From Candidatus Moraniibacteriota bacterium (GTDB lineage: Bacteria; Patescibacteriota; Minisyncoccia; Moranbacterales; UBA2206): a stretch of DNA of 64,000 bases. Positions within the stretch are counted from its first letter, which is position 1. The number at the start of each line of letters is the position of its first letter. The stretch covers positions 8,594 through 72,593 of the forward strand of contig JBAQNU010000004.1 of the NCBI GenBank assembly GCA_049304095.1, read 5' to 3'. Shown here piece after piece: positions 23,495-47,862 of the stretch. The position numbers and the translations under genes are program-made. The notes beneath the pieces are model-generated. The model saw nothing but the letters and a program-made list of their open reading frames with translations. It did not search any database and was not told the origin of the DNA.

Positions 23495-24982
23495 ATGATG
23501 AGATTGCGAAAAATACTTACTTTTTGTCAAAAGCCCGGCTTTTTGCTTGGTTTAATTTTAGCGGCCTTTTTTTTGAAAGGTCTGCTTTTAGTGTCGGCCT
23601 TTCCTATTTTTGGCGGACAAGACGAATCGCGGCACTATAACACCATTCAATATTTAGCTGAGCCGAAAGAAAAGACATGGCCCATCACAGTGCAGACCAA
23701 AGAGCAAGCTACGGCGCAAAAGGAAGCGCAGGACAAAGATGACCTCGCCACCTATCGTTATTCGCAGGAGATTCAAAATACCGCCATAGCCACCGACACG
23801 GACGCTCTGCGCGGAGATATTTTCAACACGATTGCTTTTTCCGAAAATTCCCAAGGCCTCAACGAAAACGAAATCAATGCGCATAGTTGGAAGGCCTACA
23901 ATTTCGTCTCCCCAGCGGACATGGTGAGTGGAACTGTGTTCTATCACAAACTCGGCACGCTTATTGAAAAAGCTTTTGCTGACCAAAGTATTTTAGTGCG
24001 TTTCTATTTGATCCGTATTTTTTCGGTCTTCTTGGGGATGCTAGTGATTCTTTTAGCATACCTCACTGCCAAAAAAATGGGCTTTTCGGCGCGCCACAGC
24101 CTCCTTCTCACTGCCATTATTTCTTTCCAACCCAAATTTTCTTTCTACTATTCCAACATCAACTATGACGTACTACTCATTTTAATGTTCGCGCTTTTCA
24201 CCTATGCCGGAATTTTGACCCTCAAAGATGGTCCGAACTGGAAAAATATGGCGCTCCTGGTTTTTTCCATTTTTGTAGCGAGAGAAACAAAAGCGACTGG
24301 AACAATCCTCTTGGTTGCTTTTATTTTTCTGCTGGCGTATTTATTCTATAAAAAATTCGAGGCTCGCGTGAAAAGCCAAGTTTCTCCCTATTCAATTTTA
24401 GCCATTACACTTTCTGTCGTGATCGCCTTTGCACTCATAACGCTTTCGCTTGATCTCACCAATTTGGGGAAAGTCATCACCGCTACTGGCGCTTATTTAG
24501 GAAAAAGTCTCACCTTGGGAAGATTGGCCCTTTCAGCGCGCACCTATTGGGGCACGCTCAGCTGGACCAACAGCTTCTTTATGGATTATATTATCAACTT
24601 CATCTGGCTCATTGAATTTTTCGCAATCATTGGACTGGGATTTTTCTTTTTTGGCAAAACTGAAAAGCCTAAATTTTTGCCAGAAAAAAAATATCTCACA
24701 TTTCTAGTTGGAATGATTGTTGCCCTGCAATTGGGCATTCGTGTGGCTGATTGGTCAATTTTTCAACAGCTAGGAAAACTGGAGATTGGCGCGCCGGGAC
24801 GCTATTTCTTGCCCAACCTAACCGCGCACATTATTTTAGTTTTTTCCGGTCTCGGGATGCTTTTCACACGCTTTAAAAAAGAAACTTATTTCGACAATTC
24901 ACTCCTCCTCGGCGCAATTTTGATGCTAGCTTTTTCACTCTATTTGATTTTTGATGTGATTATTTTTAGATTTTATTTATAA
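23495..24982 (+). CDS. GT-C-like polytopic membrane protein (DUF2142-like)
   Basis: First TM is followed by GGQDESRHY (DE motif). More than 10 TM helices. Confidence 0.55.
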   Translation: MMRLRKILTFCQKPGFLLGLILAAFFLKGLLLVSAFPIFGGQDESRHYNTIQYLAEPKEKTWPITVQTKEQATAQKEAQDKDDLATYRYSQEIQNTAIATDTDALRGDIFNTIAFSENSQGLNENEINAHSWKAYNFVSPADMVSGTVFYHKLGTLIEKAFADQSILVRFYLIRIFSVFLGMLVILLAYLTAKKMGFSARHSLLLTAIISFQPKFSFYYSNINYDVLLILMFALFTYAGILTLKDGPNWKNMALLVFSIFVARETKATGTILLVAFIFLLAYLFYKKFEARVKSQVSPYSILAITLSVVIAFALITLSLDLTNLGKVITATGAYLGKSLTLGRLALSARTYWGTLSWTNSFFMDYIINFIWLIEFFAIIGLGFFFFGKTEKPKFLPEKKYLTFLVGMIVALQLGIRVADWSIFQQLGKLEIGAPGRYFLPNLTAHIILVFSGLGMLFTRFKKETYFDNSLLLGAILMLAFSLYLIFDVIIFRFYL

Positions 24983-27356: not shown

Positions 27357-27764
27357 ATGAAAAAGATTTTCACTTTTAATTTCAATCGCAAGCAAGCGCT
27401 ACTGCTTGTCTATAAACTACTGCATGATCTCTCTTTTTTGCTATTCGTCATTTTCGCCGGACTGCTTTTGGCAGAGGCGGTGATACCTGGTCTTTTGTCC
27501 TTTCATTTGAGTATTCCCCTATTTGTTTTTTTGATGCTTTTCTCACTTGGCATAATCGGACAAATTGGCCGTAAATTTGATTTGCACTATCCACTTGTTT
27601 CCGTGCGCAAAAATAAATTTATGCCTTTTTTCGTGCTCATCATTATCCTCCTTTTAGGCGGTTCAATGCTAAAATTTTCTCTTTGGGAGAATTTGCTAAT
27701 CCTTTCGGGAACACTCTATCTACTTTTTCTTTTCTACCGCATCATGCTTAGAGCGCAACGCTGA
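27357..27764 (+). CDS. small polytopic membrane protein
   Basis: 135 aa with 4 hydrophobic helices. Converges on the pseudo-HtrA gene. Confidence 0.4.
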   Translation: MKKIFTFNFNRKQALLLVYKLLHDLSFLLFVIFAGLLLAEAVIPGLLSFHLSIPLFVFLMLFSLGIIGQIGRKFDLHYPLVSVRKNKFMPFFVLIIILLLGGSMLKFSLWENLLILSGTLYLLFLFYRIMLRAQR

Positions 27765-28893
27765 TAGTCATTTCTTGCGAGTTGCGCAAGACGGAAAGAT
27801 CGATTTGTTCGCCTTTTTTATGCTTGTATAATAAATCAGGCAAAGAATGCGTTTGGTCTATTTTCTCACCAGCCACAGCGATAATAATGTCGTTTAGTTT
27901 TAGTCCGGCTTTGGCAGCACTGGAGTTGGCAATAATGGCGAGACCTTGTTGCGCTGAAGGAGAATAGATAAGCGCGCCAGATTCTGTTGGCAAGCCATTC
28001 ACCAGTGCGTACGACTTAGTAATAGAACGATGGTAGATTCCCAAGATTGGATTAGTACCAAGCTCTTTGCGAATTTCCTTATCGAGCACCGTTTTGATTT
28101 TGTTGGCCGGGATTTGGAAATACACATTTTTGCCATCACGCACATTGGCGCCAGTGAGAGCAATCGCTTGACCGGAATAGTCCACAATCGGTCCGCCGAC
28201 ATAATTTTCTCCGCGACCGAGATCAGTTTCGAAAACGCCTTCCATTTTTTCTGAAGAAGCAATCGCATTTTCAGATAAATTGTATTCGTAGTTGAGATTG
28301 CCCAAAATTCCGGCAGCAAAAAAAGAATTATAGGCTCCAGAGTTGTTGCCAATAGCAATAATTTTTTGACCGGAAATGACATCGTCCGAATTGCCAAAAG
28401 AAATTGCCGGGAGATTACTAGCATTAATTTTCAAAAAAGCTAGGTTGCTATAGGAATCAGTGTCCACCAGCGTCGCGTCATAGACATTATTGTCACTGGT
28501 TATAACCTTATAGCTAGCATTTTCCAAAAAAACTGCACTAGCATAGGTCATGACGAGCCCATCGCTTGTCGCGATAAGTCCGGTGCCATTTTTGATTGTC
28601 ATTGACGCTGGCAATTTTTTGTCTGCAGACACACCCGTGGAAGAAATGATGTTTACCACCGAAGGAGCTACTTGACTGGCAATCTTGCTAACTGAAACAT
28701 CTTCTTTGACAAAGACTTGCTCGGTCTTGTTGATGATGGTCACGTCTTCCGAGGCTTTTTTGAAAAAAGTATATTTAGCAAAAAATTTGGTCGCCGCCAA
28801 ATGAGGGAAAATAAAACGATCAGCTACGACTCCACTAATCCCGGCCACAATGATGACGCCCAATACAAATAATAGTTGTTTTAGCTTACTCAT
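27748..28893 (-). CDS. HtrA/DegP-family paralogue with PDZ domain but all three catalytic residues replaced (pseudo-protease)
   Basis: The residues that align with the H, D and S of the neighbouring active HtrA are substituted. NKHVV becomes TYASAV, DIAVIKID becomes NLAFLKIN, and GNSGGP becomes ENYVGGP. Confidence 0.7.
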   Translation of the reverse strand: MSKLKQLLFVLGVIIVAGISGVVADRFIFPHLAATKFFAKYTFFKKASEDVTIINKTEQVFVKEDVSVSKIASQVAPSVVNIISSTGVSADKKLPASMTIKNGTGLIATSDGLVMTYASAVFLENASYKVITSDNNVYDATLVDTDSYSNLAFLKINASNLPAISFGNSDDVISGQKIIAIGNNSGAYNSFFAAGILGNLNYEYNLSENAIASSEKMEGVFETDLGRGENYVGGPIVDYSGQAIALTGANVRDGKNVYFQIPANKIKTVLDKEIRKELGTNPILGIYHRSITKSYALVNGLPTESGALIYSPSAQQGLAIIANSSAAKAGLKLNDIIIAVAGEKIDQTHSLPDLLYKHKKGEQIDLSVLRNSQEMTISVAL

Positions 28894-28917
28894 AAATTGA
28901 AATTATAACTTAAATTA

Positions 28918-29667
28918 TTAGATTACTGGGATCCATTTGGAAGTCAAAAGAATAATGAGAACCAGGAAAGAAAACAAAACTGCGCTAGAAATTGCCCTTT
29001 TTTGGCTTAGAATGTCCAGGAAATGACACTGGATGATGTCCCAGAGCATATAATAGAGTATAAGAGCAATTACGCCTGTGGTCAAATAGCCAAACGGCCA
29101 AAAAGTCATTGACCAAATTAGCTCCATCATGGCGAGACTAAGCAAAAAACTATATAGCCAAACAGTATTTCCTTGATCAGGACCGATAATGGAGAAATAT
29201 TGATAGCTAACGAAAAGTGTGATAAGAAAATAGGCTAGCATCAGCACATAGAGTGGAACCAGAAAATTCAAATACAGTCCATAGGCGCTGGCATAGGCAA
29301 AAAAAATCGTAGTTGAGGTGGCGGCCATATTCATCCCTCTGGCGGTTTGATCCTTCTCATATGCCCCCAAACGACTGGCGCCAAAAATAGCCAGATAATA
29401 CATTCCACTAGCGAGCAAAATAAAAGCTTGCTGTTCATAGAAAAGTCCGATGAGATAGAGCAAGGCCACGGAAGAAAGGGCGAAGAAAAAAGGCAAGACA
29501 GCAAACTTCCATTTTGTTCCAATATTTTTCCCTTCTCGCAGGGAAAACAACAACAAAAGAACGGTAATCGCAATCACCCAATTAGTCTCGCTGCGCACAA
29601 AAATTATCGCCTCAAGGCTCAAGAAAAACAGCAGGCTATAGAAAAATAAACGCAGCTTTAGAAACAT
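28918..29667 (-). CDS. polytopic membrane protein (249 aa)
   Basis: About 8 TM helices. Lies between the two HtrA genes, 1 nt from the upstream gene. Confidence 0.5.
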   Translation of the reverse strand: MFLKLRLFFYSLLFFLSLEAIIFVRSETNWVIAITVLLLLFSLREGKNIGTKWKFAVLPFFFALSSVALLYLIGLFYEQQAFILLASGMYYLAIFGASRLGAYEKDQTARGMNMAATSTTIFFAYASAYGLYLNFLVPLYVLMLAYFLITLFVSYQYFSIIGPDQGNTVWLYSFLLSLAMMELIWSMTFWPFGYLTTGVIALILYYMLWDIIQCHFLDILSQKRAISSAVLFSFLVLIILLTSKWIPVI

Positions 29668-29668
29668 A

Positions 29669-30970
29669 TTAATTTTTTCTTTCTTCCAATTTTACTTTAA
29701 CATCTTTTGCATCTCCTTTATGCCAAACCTTCAGAGTTGCTTCGTCGCCCACATTCAGCTTGGAGACTAAATTGACTAAACTATTTTTATCATCAATTTT
29801 TGTACTATTTATTTCCAAAATAACATCATTCTCTACGATCCCCGCTTTGTCCGCCGGAGAACCAGGAACAACCGCAAAATCAGTCATGGATTGCCCCCGC
29901 AAAACCAAAACACCATAATCAAAAGAAAGGTTAAGTTGTTTTTGTAGCACCGCATCAATGGGGATATAACGCACTCCAAGATAGGGCGTGGAAATTTTTC
30001 CCGTTTGTTTGACTTGATTGGTCACTTTTTTGACTTGCGCCGCTGGAATGGCAAAGCCGACGTTTTGCGCGCCCTGGGCCATTGCCACGTTGATGCCAAT
30101 CACATTTCCCGCAATATCCAACAGCGGTCCGCCAGAATTACCTGGATTAATTGCTGCGTCAGTCTGGATAATGTTGCTCAGCTGTTCACTTTCTCCTGAA
30201 TTTCCGCCAGCCGTTAGATTTCTTTTGAGACCGGAAATTATGCCTTTGCTCACTGTGTTAGAAAATTCTCCCAAAGAATTGCCAATTGCTACCACGGTCT
30301 GACCGATCTTCAAAGAATCCGAATCGCCAAAATTGAGCGTGGGAAAATTGGTTCCGTCAATTTTAATGACAGCAATATCATTCACAGGGTCTCGCGCCAA
30401 AACTTTAGCCACATATTCCTTGCCATCATTAGTCATCACCGTATAGTCCGCACTCGTATCGGAAACAACGTGCTTGTTGGTTACAATCATTCCGTCGGAT
30501 GTAATGATAAAGCCAGTTCCTCCGCCGATTTTTTCTTTTTGCGTTGCACCTCCGGCGGAATCATCCTGACCAGTCCCCATTCCGCTACCATCACCAAAAA
30601 AACCAAACGGATCAAAAAACCTGTTTTGCAATTTAGGAATATCTTTGCTGATTATAATGCTAACCACCGCCGGCGTCGATTTTTCCACCACATCAATCAC
30701 AGCCGAATCTTCTTCCACAATTTTCTCTCGCGAAACAGTCGAATCGTTTTTTGCCGCGCTTTTGCCAGCAGTTCCGAAAATTTCAGGCAACTTTTTCGAA
30801 AGACTGAGCGACAACTTATTGCCAAAGCCTCCCGCTACAAAGCCAAATAGCGCTCCAAAAGTAGCTGAAACGAACACAACTAGAAGTAGCGTAAAAATAA
30901 GATAGACTATCCGCGAACGTCCTTGTTTTTTTTCTATTGGTTTTTCTAATTTAATTTCTTCGTTTTCCAT
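29669..30970 (-). CDS. HtrA/DegP trypsin-like serine protease with PDZ domain
   Basis: TGFIITSDGMIVTNKHVV (His), DIAVIKID (Asp), GNSGGPLLD (Ser) and a C-terminal PDZ domain. N-terminal TM anchor. Confidence 0.85.
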   Translation of the reverse strand: MENEEIKLEKPIEKKQGRSRIVYLIFTLLLVVFVSATFGALFGFVAGGFGNKLSLSLSKKLPEIFGTAGKSAAKNDSTVSREKIVEEDSAVIDVVEKSTPAVVSIIISKDIPKLQNRFFDPFGFFGDGSGMGTGQDDSAGGATQKEKIGGGTGFIITSDGMIVTNKHVVSDTSADYTVMTNDGKEYVAKVLARDPVNDIAVIKIDGTNFPTLNFGDSDSLKIGQTVVAIGNSLGEFSNTVSKGIISGLKRNLTAGGNSGESEQLSNIIQTDAAINPGNSGGPLLDIAGNVIGINVAMAQGAQNVGFAIPAAQVKKVTNQVKQTGKISTPYLGVRYIPIDAVLQKQLNLSFDYGVLVLRGQSMTDFAVVPGSPADKAGIVENDVILEINSTKIDDKNSLVNLVSKLNVGDEATLKVWHKGDAKDVKVKLEERKN

Positions 30971-31273: not shown

Positions 31274-32323
31274 CTAGAACAAAACAGAAATATCTCCGGG
31301 GGAATTTTTACTGAGGTTTTCTTCGAAATTTTTCAAATCCGCATTGCGAAATTCAACTTGCCCATTGTTTTTGTTCCAAAATAGGTCTTTGGCCAAAACA
31401 TGAATGTTCATTTTTTTCTCCGTCTCAAACAACCAATCGGAAAAATTCAATGTGCGCACGAAAATTTGCTTCAATTTGAGCTTGGGCACATCCCCTTCTG
31501 TCTTTTGATCCTCTACTAGAATAATGTGATAACCCAGTTGACTTTCGATAACATCACTCATGGCGCCTTTTTTCAGACTAAAAACAGTATTGGCAATTTC
31601 CGGCAGCATCTCTATTGCACTAAACCAACCCAGCTCGCCATCATTTTTCACACTCTCTCCCTCAGAATATTTTTTGACTGTTTCGGTGAAATCCTTTCCG
31701 CCTTTCAAATCCCCAAGCGCCGTCTCAATCTTATTTTTTGCCGTTTTAGTTTTCGCATCATTTTCACGCAAATTGGCCGACAGCTTTTCCCTGTACATAT
31801 CCGGCTTCACAATATTATTTTCAAAATCAGCGATTGTCCAGCCATAGAGCTTGGCCAAATTATTTTTGAGATATTCCTCGCTGTCATAGGCTTTCATCTG
31901 GCGAGAAACTTCTTGAGAAATGTCTTCCGCGCTCAATTTCAAACCTCTGCTCACAGCCTCGTTTTCGATTATCCGATTTTCAATCAACTTGTTTAGGATA
32001 TTTTTTTCCTTGATTTTTAGCCGTTTTTTTCCATCTTCGGTGGCAAAATCAACCCGCATACCAATATCAGAGAAATCCTGATGCTCATAGAACATACGCG
32101 CAGAATTAAGGCTATCTTTCAACTCAGCCATAGAGATGAAGTTCGCGCCCCAAAACGCTGCCGGATATGGCACATAGACAGCCGTTTTTTGCACGATTTT
32201 ATTTGTGCTGTCAAAAGCATAGAGTAAAACCGCGTTAGCTACTAAATATAGTCCGAGAAAAATGAGTAGGCCCCATAGGACCACTTGCACTTTTATTTTT
32301 TTCTCGTTTGATTTTTCTTGCAT
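31274..32323 (-). CDS. parvulin-type peptidyl-prolyl isomerase (PrsA/SurA-like foldase), membrane anchored
   Basis: N-terminal TM. Parvulin domain DGELGWFS...LGYHIILVED. Confidence 0.75.
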   Translation of the reverse strand: MQEKSNEKKIKVQVVLWGLLIFLGLYLVANAVLLYAFDSTNKIVQKTAVYVPYPAAFWGANFISMAELKDSLNSARMFYEHQDFSDIGMRVDFATEDGKKRLKIKEKNILNKLIENRIIENEAVSRGLKLSAEDISQEVSRQMKAYDSEEYLKNNLAKLYGWTIADFENNIVKPDMYREKLSANLRENDAKTKTAKNKIETALGDLKGGKDFTETVKKYSEGESVKNDGELGWFSAIEMLPEIANTVFSLKKGAMSDVIESQLGYHIILVEDQKTEGDVPKLKLKQIFVRTLNFSDWLFETEKKMNIHVLAKDLFWNKNNGQVEFRNADLKNFEENLSKNSPGDISVLF

Positions 32324-32343: not shown

Positions 32344-32754
32344 TTAATATTTGAAAAAATAGTTCCACCATTTTTCCGGATTAGTTGTTTTGACTACCAG
32401 CTTTTGACTTTCTGGTGCTTGATTTTTTTCGTTATTAGTAGCGGCCTTCCCTGTTGGGCTGGATTTGACAATTACCACGTTTTCCTCGGGACTTTGCAAA
32501 TTCAATTTATCGCGAATCTCCTTTTCTTGATAATCCCGTCCTTCCAGATAGGTCAACTTATCCGCTAGGCGCGAATTATCCACCTGGATTTTTTTGGCCT
32601 CTTCTTCCAGCGCGCTAATTTCTTTTTGAATCTGTTTTTTGCGATAGGTCTCCTTGACGATTGCGAGAATAATGAAAACCAAAGCCACCAAGCCCAAAAA
32701 AACAATGAGCCGCACTAGCCACGAATTTTCCCTCGCCTCTTCTTTGTCTCGCAT
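32344..32754 (-). CDS. FtsB/DivIC-like septum formation initiator
   Basis: N-terminal TM, then a heptad coiled coil (IQKEISALEEEAKKIQVDNSRLADKLTYLE). Confidence 0.55.
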   Translation of the reverse strand: MRDKEEARENSWLVRLIVFLGLVALVFIILAIVKETYRKKQIQKEISALEEEAKKIQVDNSRLADKLTYLEGRDYQEKEIRDKLNLQSPEENVVIVKSSPTGKAATNNEKNQAPESQKLVVKTTNPEKWWNYFFKY

Positions 32755-32875: not shown

Positions 32876-32926
32876 AGAGAAATTATAGCAAATTAATAAC
32901 TAAAGGACAAATTTTTTATTTATATC

Positions 32927-33086: not shown

Positions 33087-34958
33087 CTATTTTTTCAAAA
33101 CCGCCAAAAATGCCTCCGATGGAATAGCCACTTTTCCAATGTTTTTCATCTTCTTTTTGCCTTTTTTCTGCTTTTCCAAAAGCTTTCTTTTTCTGGTGAT
33201 GTCTCCGCCATAAAGGCCACTAGTCACATCTTTGCGAAAAGCTTTGACAGTTTCACGTGCCAAGACTTTTCCGCCAATCGCCGCTTGAATGGCTATTTGG
33301 AAATTTTGCCGTGGAATGGAATCTTTCAATTTTTCCACAATGCGCTTGCCTTCACTGAACGCCCAAATTTTTGGCACAATGCGCGAAAAAGCTTCCACTT
33401 TTTCCTCAGCAATTATAATATCTAATTTGATAAGTTCATTGGCCCGATAGTCAGAAAGTTCATAATTCATTGAAGCGTAACCGGAAGAAGCGCTTTTGAG
33501 ATCATCATGCAAATTTGTAATGACATCCGTCAACGGACAATCAAATTTCAAAATCATCCGTTCGCTGTTGAGATATTCCGTATCAAGATACTGCGCGCGC
33601 GTATTTCGCATCATTTCCATGATCACACCGAGATAGCTTGATGGCGAAACAATTTCTAGATGCACATAGGGCTCAAAAATCGCTTCAATGGCGGAAGGGT
33701 CGGGCAATTCTGAGGGCGAATAGACTTTCAGGCGCTGCTCATTACTTTTGCCAACCAATTGAATTTCATAGACCACGCCAGGAGTCGTTATGGTTGGGCT
33801 GAGTTCAAATTCCGCTTCCAGACGAGCTTGGATTATTTCCAGGTGAAGTAGGCCCAAAAATCCGCAACGAAAACCCCGGCCAAGCGCCAGATTGCTTTCT
33901 GGCTCAAAAACAAATGCCGCGTCGTTCAATTTCAACTTAGAAAGTGCGTCGCGCATTAAATTATAATCATCGCCAGAAGTGGGATAGAATGAAGCATAAA
34001 CCATTGGACTGACTTCGCGATACCCTGGCAATTTTTCGATTTGTTTTTCAAATTTCGATAGTGTGACAGTATCGCCCACCTTGCAAAATTCCACACTTTT
34101 GAATCCCGTTGCAATGTAGCCAATTTCGCCAACTTTTAGCTTCGCTGTTTTTTGAAAGGCAGGCTTGAAATAGCCCACCTCAATCACGTCACTCTTGGCA
34201 CCAGTCGCCAGCATCAAGATTTCTTCTTCGGCGGAAATTCCCCCGTCAATCACGCGCACATAGGCTAGCACTCCTTTATAGGTGTCGTATTTCGAATCAA
34301 AAACAAGCGCACGCAAAGGTTTCGTTTCATCTCCACTCGGCGCTGGCACAACCTCAACAATTCGCTCTAAAAGTTTGTCCACGCCTTCGCCGGTTTTTCC
34401 CGACACTTCCAAAATATCCTCCTCTTTGCAACCAATAATATGCATAATTTCCGCCTTGGTTTTTTCCACGTCAGCATTGGGCAAATCAATTTTATTGGCC
34501 ACGGGAATAATCGTCAAATTATGCTCAATCGCTTGATAGAGGTTAGCCAGCGTCTGTGCCTGCACACCTTTCGTCGCATCCACCAAAAGCACCGCCCCTT
34601 CCACCGCCGCGAGAGAACGCGAAACCTCATAACCAAAATCAACATGCCCAGGAGTATCTATTAAATTTAAAATGTATTTCTCTTGTCCCCTCTCCTTACC
34701 AAGGAGAGGGTTAGGGTGAGGTGAATTTTGTTTGGAATTTGTATCTTGTAACTTGGAATTTTCCGTATGATACTCCATACGGACCGGTTGCATCTTAATC
34801 GTAATCCCCCGCTCACGCTCAAGATCCATCTGATCGAGCAGTTGTTCTTTCATCTTGCGCATCTCAACCGTGCCGGTAATTTCCAGCATTCGATCGGCCA
34901 AGGTCGACTTTCCATGGTCGATGTGGGCAATTATACAGAAATTTCGAATATTTTTCAT
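33087..34958 (-). CDS. lepA: elongation factor 4 (LepA)
   Basis: AHIDHGKST, DTPGH and NKID GTPase motifs plus the LepA C-terminal domain. Carries a roughly 24-aa in-frame insertion relative to canonical LepA before the DTPGH motif. Confidence 0.95.
   Translation of the reverse strand: MKNIRNFCIIAHIDHGKSTLADRMLEITGTVEMRKMKEQLLDQMDLERERGITIKMQPVRMEYHTENSKLQDTNSKQNSPHPNPLLGKERGQEKYILNLIDTPGHVDFGYEVSRSLAAVEGAVLLVDATKGVQAQTLANLYQAIEHNLTIIPVANKIDLPNADVEKTKAEIMHIIGCKEEDILEVSGKTGEGVDKLLERIVEVVPAPSGDETKPLRALVFDSKYDTYKGVLAYVRVIDGGISAEEEILMLATGAKSDVIEVGYFKPAFQKTAKLKVGEIGYIATGFKSVEFCKVGDTVTLSKFEKQIEKLPGYREVSPMVYASFYPTSGDDYNLMRDALSKLKLNDAAFVFEPESNLALGRGFRCGFLGLLHLEIIQARLEAEFELSPTITTPGVVYEIQLVGKSNEQRLKVYSPSELPDPSAIEAIFEPYVHLEIVSPSSYLGVIMEMMRNTRAQYLDTEYLNSERMILKFDCPLTDVITNLHDDLKSASSGYASMNYELSDYRANELIKLDIIIAEEKVEAFSRIVPKIWAFSEGKRIVEKLKDSIPRQNFQIAIQAAIGGKVLARETVKAFRKDVTSGLYGGDITRKRKLLEKQKKGKKKMKNIGKVAIPSEAFLAVLKK
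34689..34709. repeat. perfect 9-bp GC-rich palindrome (cctctcctt-acc-aaggagagg) inside the lepA insertion
   Basis: Seen in the sequence. Encodes part of NSPHPNPLLGKERGQ, which has no equivalent in canonical LepA. Confidence 0.8.
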
Positions 34959-47510: not shown

Positions 47511-47862
47511 GATCAAAGCAAATCTATAAGCCGGATTCTGTTGAAAATAGTAATTTATCTAGCGCCGACGTTACCGTCGGAGTCAAGCGGCACTTCCTGT
47601 ATTTAGCTAAAAACACAGGACACGACCTTGCATTCAGATAAGGATTTAGCCGTTTCACCCCCAAGGTTACCCTTGGGATTCACCCCAACGTAACGCCGGG
47701 GTGCTCTTTTCATTGCTGAAAAAAGCGTCTCTGCTCGCACCTCGCGGATCACTCCGTATGGGTATTACCCATTACCTTTCCCCCGACGTGACGTCGGGGA
47801 TGAATGTCCGGACTTTCCTCCCCGACGAATCGTCGGGGCTACTATTCAATTTGCTTTGATAA
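47511..47862 (-). ncRNA. rnpB: RNase P RNA, bacterial type A
   Basis: Minus strand carries the P4 strands GGAGGAAAGUCCGGAC (CR-I) and ACAGAAUCCGGCUUAUAG. P1 pairs AUCAAAGCAAAUU with AGAUUUGCUUUGAU. P3 hairpin CCCCGACGAUUCGUCGGGG. A GGGGUGAAACGG CR-II-like motif is present. Confidence 0.8.

Follow-up and report, generated by a model that had tools for sequence, protein, structure and literature searches.

The window analysed here is a stretch of 64,000 nucleotides (nt) from a Candidatus Moraniibacteriota bacterium, a member of the Patescibacteria or Candidate Phyla Radiation (CPR); the names given to its close homologues likewise point to Candidatus Moranbacteria. On its minus strand six genes follow one another in one tight same-direction run, encoding a DivIC-like protein, a peptidyl-prolyl isomerase (PPIase), a ferredoxin, an HtrA protease, a membrane protein with the domain DUF5656 and a second HtrA-like protein that has lost the catalytic triad and is here called pseudo-HtrA (Table 1). 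A single nt separates the stop codon of the active HtrA gene from the start codon of the DUF5656 gene (TAA-T-ATG), and 24 nt lie between the DUF5656 stop and the pseudo-HtrA start. The last three genes had been singled out in a sequence-only reading of this DNA, and the 3 open reading frames (ORFs) and 6 motifs quoted there are all present on the minus strand.

Table 1. Features of the HtrA locus, followed by other features of the window (positions are those of the window; aa, amino acids)
Feature	Position	Strand	Remarks
Pseudo-HtrA, 381 aa	27748..28893	-	Pfam Trypsin_2 1.6e-14 + PDZ_2 5e-12
S119 codon, catalytic His position	28537..28539	-	position variable in family (S/D/N/G/E/T/K/A)
N150 codon, catalytic Asp position	28444..28446	-	Asn strongly conserved in family, motif SYSNLAFLKI
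V232 codon, nucleophilic Ser position	28198..28200	-	V/I/L conserved in family
DUF5656 membrane protein, 249 aa	28918..29667	-	Pfam PF18900
DUF5656 C-terminal tail S-K-W-I-P-V-I-COOH, predicted extracytoplasmic	28921..28941	-	conserved across species
Active HtrA, 433 aa	29669..30970	-	Pfam Trypsin_2 1.6e-36 + PDZ_2; TIGR02037 1.9e-89
H167 codon of active HtrA	30470..30472	-	motif NKHVV
D198 codon of active HtrA	30377..30379	-	motif NDIAVIKI
S279 codon of active HtrA	30134..30136	-	motif GNSGGP
4Fe-4S ferredoxin, 60 aa	31061..31243	-	Pfam Fer4_13 2.3e-11
Membrane-anchored PpiC/SurA-N PPIase (PrsA/SurA-like foldase)	31274..32323	-	Pfam Rotamase 2e-20 + SurA_N_3; N-terminal hydrophobic segment
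DivIC/FtsB-like septum protein	32344..32754	-	Pfam DivIC 4.9e-9; probably first gene of the same-strand run
Promoter-like TTGTCC-17-TATAAT	32910..32882		in a 332-nt gap 5' of the DivIC-like gene; such sites overall at chance level
Hydrophobic ORF, 135 aa	27357..27764	+	no Pfam match
ORF, 444 aa	25824..27158	+	no Pfam match
ORF, 211 aa	25170..25805	+	no Pfam match
Envelope glycopolymer gene position	23495..24982	+	
LepA (EF4)	33087..34958	-	
Bacterial class A RNase P RNA	47511..47857	-	134 bits; sole Rfam match in the window

Pseudo-HtrA is laid out as a hydrophobic anchor or signal (residues 7-24), a linker whose motif TIINKTEQ (52-59) is conserved, a trypsin-like domain (about 66-275) and one PDZ domain (about 280-381). 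Pfam Trypsin_2 and PDZ_2/PDZ_6 are found above their cutoffs. An AlphaFold2 (AF2) model with a predicted local distance difference test (pLDDT) of 83.9 and a predicted template modelling score (pTM) of 0.74 has the HtrA protease and PDZ fold, and the best Foldseek matches of this model are DegP, DegQ, MucD, AlgW and M. tuberculosis HtrA (E 1e-24 to 1e-19). On the trypsin fold and PDZ domain that the sequence-only reading had assigned to this ORF, Pfam, the model and Foldseek agree. In terms of the HtrA/DegP family (MEROPS S1C), the fold of a trypsin-like domain with at least one PDZ domain is present, and the His-Asp-Ser triad and the GNSGGP loop are absent. The NCBIfam models for HtrA/Do/DegS score below their cutoffs (NF047968 144 bits vs 470, TIGR02037 126 vs 416). 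Judged by its sequence, pseudo-HtrA is a homologue of the HtrA/DegP family and not a peptidase member of it.

BLASTP aligns the two HtrA proteins of the locus (28% identity, E 7e-41) without a gap in the vicinity of the motifs; the catalytic residues H167, D198 and S279 of the active protein correspond to S119, N150 and V232 of pseudo-HtrA. The same equivalences were obtained when the family profile was aligned to solved HtrA/DegP/HTRA1 chains (E 1e-35), and the loss of all three catalytic residues is thereby borne out by pairwise and profile alignments. Furthermore, the oxyanion-hole glycine (the 'G' of GNSGGP) is replaced by N230, with N/H/R/K/D in the relatives, and G233-G234-P235 are kept. 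Histidines occur in pseudo-HtrA only at positions 31, 288, 349 and 358 and none of them lies in the protease domain (66-275); 53 of the 81 orthologues likewise lack histidine in this domain. As there is no histidine in the protease domain of pseudo-HtrA, no realignment can rebuild the triad. A gapped alignment restoring His/Asp/Ser at other positions was looked for and decisively not obtained, the pairwise, family and PDB-profile alignments being concordant, and a rescue of the triad by realignment was rejected.

The neighbouring active HtrA has an N-terminal transmembrane (TM) anchor, a long LA loop, a protease domain and one PDZ domain. Its H167/D198/S279 triad codons were verified, as the sequence-only reading had it, and with the fold, the intact triad and the GNSGGP loop it is a canonical HtrA of the HtrA/DegP family (MEROPS S1C). 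Its TIGR02037 score of 300.6 lies below the cutoff of 416, probably because this model expects a two-PDZ Do-type protein and the protein has one PDZ domain.

One genome per GTDB species was scanned with the pseudo-HtrA family alignment, which gave 151 relatives, and 80 loci were fetched. All 120 of its closest relatives in the databases, which are about 380 aa long and 51-97% identical, are triad-dead, with a conserved Asn at the Asp site, a conserved V/I/L at the Ser site and a hypervariable His site. They carry the database labels 'S1C family serine protease' or 'serine protease Do'. When 1.84 billion cluster representatives were searched with the profile, dozens of triad-dead 50%-identity clusters, whose residues at the three sites vary widely, ranked above the canonical H-D-S HtrAs; almost all of the representatives at the top of the ranking are dead. 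In a rough neighbour-joining tree the dead proteins form one clade without any H-D-S member. By these comparisons the dead clade is large and monophyletic within Moranbacteria-like CPR bacteria.

The ratio of non-synonymous to synonymous substitution rates (dN/dS) of pseudo-HtrA is 0.065 and 0.060 when measured against relatives at 97% and 90% aa identity, respectively. For the neighbours the values are 0.083 (active HtrA), 0.045-0.078 (DUF5656), 0.061 (PPIase) and 0.031 (LepA). Pseudo-HtrA is under strong purifying selection, which is indistinguishable from that on the active HtrA, DUF5656 and the PPIase. The loss of all catalytic residues might be read as the mark of a decaying pseudogene or of an annotation artefact, and the chance of this is next to nil given a full-length ORF that is intact in more than 150 species, a dN/dS of about 0.06 and a family with many invariant residues and a mean column identity of 64%. 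Decay is ruled out by the dN/dS values and the conservation of the family.

Compared with the active neighbour, the pseudo-HtrA family is about 25 residues shorter in loop LA. It keeps the GGP and the PDZ 'LG' loop, and it has conserved motifs of its own, namely TvINKTEQ (linker), sssEKlEGVfe (protease domain) and SgqqGLA (PDZ domain). The family-specific conserved residues S213, S214, E215, K216 and E218 as well as T57, E58 and Q59 could in principle make pseudo-HtrA a hydrolase by non-canonical means, e.g. by a Ser/Lys or Ser/Glu arrangement drawn from the SSEK or TEQ motifs. We consider this highly improbable in a domain without histidine, where the nucleophile position is V/I/L, the oxyanion glycine is lost and the His position is hypervariable, and no precedent was found for such a mechanism on the trypsin/HtrA fold.

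The membrane protein encoded between the two HtrA genes scores 28.8 bits against PF18900 (gathering threshold 23.3; profile positions 47-237 of 242), and all of its homologues carry this domain. NCBIfam gave no match, and Foldseek of the model against the PDB gave no match with E<1. The sequence-only reading had called it an 8-TM protein; nine TM helices are predicted instead. The AF2 model (pLDDT 86.6, pTM 0.82) has nine long helices, and the number of lysines plus arginines, averaged over 75 species, is about 13.3 on the N-terminal side of the membrane vs about 2.1 on the other side. The predicted topology is therefore N-in, nine TM and C-out, which would let the invariant motifs YEQQ, NFxVP and FWPFGYLTTG and the C-terminal tail face outward. 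Five polar residues within the membrane or at its interface are invariant (E19, E78, R99, D106 and E182).

The tail of the DUF5656 protein has the consensus [KR]-W-[IL]-P-[VI]-[IVL]-COOH, with the tryptophan in 75/75 species, the proline in 72/75 and a terminal I/V/L in 72/75. The full motif W-[IL]-P-[VI]-[IVL] is limited to Moranbacteria; outside this group only [KR]-W is kept and the tails end 2-5 variable residues after the tryptophan, sometimes in S, R, G or H. Hydrophobic C-termini are typical ligands of HtrA PDZ domains. As a universal PDZ ligand the tail is supported only in part.

The arrangement of these genes was compared across the fetched loci. DUF5656 and the dead HtrA are neighbours in about 72 of the 74 species loci, with a median spacer of 32 nt, and wherever the upstream DNA suffices DUF5656 lies directly 5' of the dead gene, apart from two loci in which it is further away or was undetected. 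In a reciprocal scan, which set out from the DUF5656 genes of metagenome contigs, the adjoining gene was a dead-type HtrA in 61/61 loci with at least 700 nt of downstream sequence, and the most divergent dead representatives have the same DUF5656-dead HtrA arrangement. In 14 loci the active HtrA directly precedes DUF5656, which is the order found in the window, and a ClpB gene of about 870 aa lies between the two in 42 loci, where the count is approximate in that some loci classified as 'ClpB upstream' have other genes directly 5' of DUF5656 (e.g. a phosphoenolpyruvate (PEP)-utilising enzyme in locus L016 and a helicase in L072). Several further loci have no active HtrA between the ferredoxin and DUF5656, and a 90%-identical relative has the order LepA-DivIC-PPIase-ferredoxin-DUF5656-dead HtrA without an active HtrA at the locus. 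Conservation in relatives, which had been suggested as a check, thus holds for the DUF5656-dead HtrA pair, whereas the active HtrA is often separated from it by ClpB or missing. Since it is DUF5656 that practically always adjoins and the active HtrA does not, the tight functional unit appears to be DUF5656 together with its HtrA-fold partner.

Our preferred reading, to which we assign a probability of roughly 0.6, is that the dead HtrA is kept by selection, forms an obligate two-gene module with DUF5656 and likely serves as a non-catalytic binding or adaptor subunit that docks on the outward side of DUF5656. Both proteins would be anchored in the membrane and form a complex on the outer face of the cytoplasmic membrane, where the HtrA-fold body, because of its N-terminal anchor, would be on the same side as the conserved surfaces of DUF5656. 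Pseudo-HtrA would serve DUF5656 as a holdase, adaptor or gate that binds peptides or proteins without cleaving them, by means of its retained PDZ domain and strand-binding cleft. In Moranbacteria, proteolysis would be left to the PPIase-linked HtrA of the same gene run, and the whole run would be one of proteostasis in the envelope and also in the cytoplasm, in the order DivIC - PrsA-like PPIase - ferredoxin - HtrA - [ClpB] - DUF5656 - pseudo-HtrA. As a speculative addition, the ...KWIPVI-COOH tail of DUF5656 might dock in a PDZ groove.

Several points weigh against this reading. The complex of DUF5656 and pseudo-HtrA is itself something that we infer, as is the mechanism, and for DUF5656 neither Pfam nor NCBIfam nor Foldseek gave a homologue with a known function. 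The docking of the tail in a PDZ domain stays speculation and is weakened by the tails found outside Moranbacteria, because these distant lineages keep only K/R-W. A promoter and terminator scan for operon boundaries gave counts at or below the shuffle expectation, and co-transcription is read from the spacing; what stands of the earlier term 'co-operonic' is the anatomy, i.e. the same strand and the 1-nt and 24-nt spacers. Finally, a mirror-tree comparison of 58 genomes speaks for the pairing of dead HtrA with DUF5656, with partial correlations of 0.60 [0.51-0.71] for these two, 0.43 [0.27-0.58] for dead and active HtrA and 0.22 for DUF5656 and active HtrA, but it is weak evidence because adjacent genes share history.

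The correlation between the dead and the active HtrA would also suit a different role, in which the dead paralogue works chiefly with the active HtrA, forming hetero-oligomers with it or activating or restraining it allosterically, and DUF5656 is a bystander or an anchor. The two HtrA genes lie in one same-strand cluster in 56 of about 74 informative species loci, and MamO (PMC4794232) and DEG7 (PMC3194040) are precedents. We hold such a main role to be unlikely, however: a ClpB gene often intervenes before the active gene, several species and the 90%-identical relative have no active HtrA at the locus, the two proteins share just 28% identity, and the dead protein has lost most of loop LA, through which HtrA subunits contact one another. 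DUF5656-linked HtrAs also occur without a second HtrA nearby, as far as short contigs allow this to be seen. The sequence-only reading had proposed a pseudo-protease partner of HtrA; the genuine and conserved triad-dead paralogue beside an active one is confirmed, but its partner is DUF5656 and the active HtrA is adjacent in only 14 loci. Regulating or assisting the active HtrA as a chaperone may be a secondary role of pseudo-HtrA.

Going back to the pair of DUF5656 and its HtrA-fold partner, the HtrA found downstream of DUF5656 in other CPR lineages may have E-D-S at the three sites (P0173, in which only the His is lost), N-D-F (P0159) or an intact H-D-S with GNSGGP (P0152). Since these HtrAs also follow DUF5656, the pairing is older than the inactivation, and by comparison of the residues the Moranbacteria-type dead clade is the fully degenerate end of the DUF5656-linked HtrAs. 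Rather tentatively, and at odds well below even, DUF5656 with its HtrA-fold subunit may be an undescribed ancient envelope machine of the CPR/Patescibacteria, in which a nine-TM protein of novel fold would have a membrane-tethered HtrA scaffold as its extracytoplasmic subunit for client binding or for gating. The repeated and graded loss, from H-D-S to E-D-S or N-D-F and on to fully dead, would then show that the core function can do without peptide-bond cleavage. In CPR loci outside Moranbacteria a protein of about 50 aa with the domain DUF5679 is encoded just 5' of the pair of DUF5656 and an HtrA that is intact or half-decayed (L088 271..429, L091 1894..2043), and it may have belonged to the ancestral module as a third component.

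Nine TM helices with invariant polar residues could also belong to a transporter or channel, or to a protein for the assembly of envelope polymers, for which pseudo-HtrA would be the extracytoplasmic sensor or gate; the pair would then act in transport or envelope biogenesis and not in protein quality control. MamO offers an analogy, as a pseudoprotease fused with a TauE-like domain whose membrane domain is required for its activating role, and genes for envelope glycopolymers recur just downstream of the pair. Yet these downstream neighbours differ between loci, the upstream context is one of proteostasis (PPIase, HtrA, ClpB), and DUF5656 has no sequence or fold similarity to any transporter by Pfam or by Foldseek against the PDB. 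A transport or polymer function is in our view quite improbable, and a non-catalytic subunit of a DUF5656 module remains the reading that we prefer.

Among known systems the magnetosome protein MamO is closest in several respects. Its triad is degenerate, the residue at position 193 is not Gly, and the protein carries a TauE-like membrane domain as a fusion and a surface di-His motif that binds metal (PMC4794232). MamO is needed for MamE-dependent proteolysis, and its membrane domain is required for this activating role (PMC4794232). MamO and pseudo-HtrA are both HtrA/trypsin-2-type proteins whose triad is degenerate; MamO, too, is kept beside an active HtrA (MamE) and is associated with a multi-pass membrane module, and it acts non-catalytically. 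The degenerate triad and the non-Gly residue at position 193 were found in pseudo-HtrA as well. A surface di-histidine metal site was not, there being no His in residues 66-275, nor was a fused C-terminal TauE-like domain, as pseudo-HtrA ends after the PDZ domain. Whereas MamO is fused to its TauE-like domain and has no PDZ partner logic, pseudo-HtrA keeps the PDZ domain and has its membrane partner encoded by a separate gene, which matches only DUF5656 in Pfam and not TauE. The lineage (CPR) and the context (PPIase/ClpB/HtrA) are unrelated to magnetosomes.

In plants, the second protease domain of DEG7 and several other Degs are inactive (PMC3194040, PMC3473262), and the degenerate domains of DEG7 drive trimerisation (PMC3194040). 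The likeness consists of a duplicated HtrA protease domain that has lost its triad and is kept for protein-protein interaction. In DEG7, however, the dead domain is fused with the active one, and these are soluble eukaryotic proteins without a dedicated membrane partner. HtrA/HtrB/HtrC of B. subtilis and HtrA/PepD of M. tuberculosis share with pseudo-HtrA an N-terminal TM anchor, a protease domain and one PDZ domain, and structures of M. tuberculosis HtrA are among its best fold matches. Such monoderm HtrA families with several paralogues act together with a PrsA-type foldase in extracytoplasmic quality control. To our knowledge, all of the B. subtilis and M. tuberculosis paralogues keep the triad, and we know of no DUF5656-like partner for them.

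That an HtrA scaffold without nucleophile still binds and holds unfolded clients is known from the chaperone-only S210A variants of DegP, and substrate-bound mutants of this kind are among the best fold matches of pseudo-HtrA. They are engineered single-residue mutants with an otherwise intact active site, whereas pseudo-HtrA has lost its entire catalytic apparatus along with most of loop LA and has acquired conserved motifs of its own. A sensor of the DegS/RseA type, i.e. a PDZ-gated active protease that cleaves a membrane anti-sigma factor, does not fit, as the triad is absent; no sigma or anti-sigma genes were seen in the conserved neighbourhood of the pair. The full-text literature on DUF5656, on PF18900 and on HtrA with Patescibacteria or Candidate Phyla Radiation gave nothing relevant, which agrees with the earlier remark that the arrangement is not commonly described. 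HtrA pseudoproteases as such are already known (MamO, DEG7); what is new here is the lineage, the context and a dedicated partner whose fold has no match in the PDB.

The neighbours of the pair were inspected as well. The PPIase gene keeps its upstream position in the loci of the relatives. The ferredoxin gene is kept between the PPIase and HtrA genes clade-wide (67-92% identity) and is an odd companion for extracytoplasmic quality control. A ClpB disaggregase is encoded between the active HtrA and DUF5656 in most related species (L003 2580..5195, L014 2599..5208 and about 40 other loci), and no ClpB gene was found in the 64-kb window by tblastn; its absence there in the lineage of the window is a presence/absence polymorphism within the cluster. 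Genes for envelope glycopolymers (Wzz/GNVR, Wzy_C, GT4 glycosyltransferases, LytR-CpsA-Psr and PMT_2-type glycosyltransferases) recur just 3' of the DUF5656-HtrA pair in different lineages (L081 7229..13164, L088 2793..4732, L091 4332..5093, L003 7179..9236). Many records of species-representative metagenome-assembled genomes with a Moranbacteria-type locus are titled 'uncultured Bdellovibrionales bacterium' (L022, L024, L032, L038, L042 and others) and are probably mislabelled CPR bins.

Downstream, the run is limited by the convergent 135-aa ORF, which overlaps the last 17 nt of the pseudo-HtrA gene and is present in the near relatives L001, L002, L067 and L085-L087. It is a real gene, being kept in these relatives with a dN/dS of 0.03-0.12. 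The ORFs of 211 and 444 aa lie between the PMT_2 glycosyltransferase and the HtrA cluster, and were found only in the closest relatives (27-56% identity). In LepA a seemingly additional stretch of low complexity (…ENSKLQDTNSKQNSPHPNPLLGKERGQEKY…) directly precedes the DTPGH motif of the GTPase domain, and the LepA of the 90%-identical relative is 8 aa shorter.

CPR genomes are about 1 Mb in size and have discarded most non-essential genes. A pseudoenzyme that over 150 species keep, with a dN/dS of about 0.06 and always beside the same membrane protein, points to an important and currently unannotated function in the envelope, and the database label 'serine protease' is misleading for it. For DUF5656, an obligate HtrA-fold partner is the first functional handle. 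The short list of HtrA pseudoproteases, with MamO and DEG7, gains a large and clean bacterial example, and the graded series from intact to half-decayed to dead is material for studying how a protease scaffold is repurposed. If DUF5656 and its HtrA-fold subunit do form an ancient envelope machine, they would represent a natural experiment in the conversion of a protease to a pseudoenzyme inside minimal genomes.

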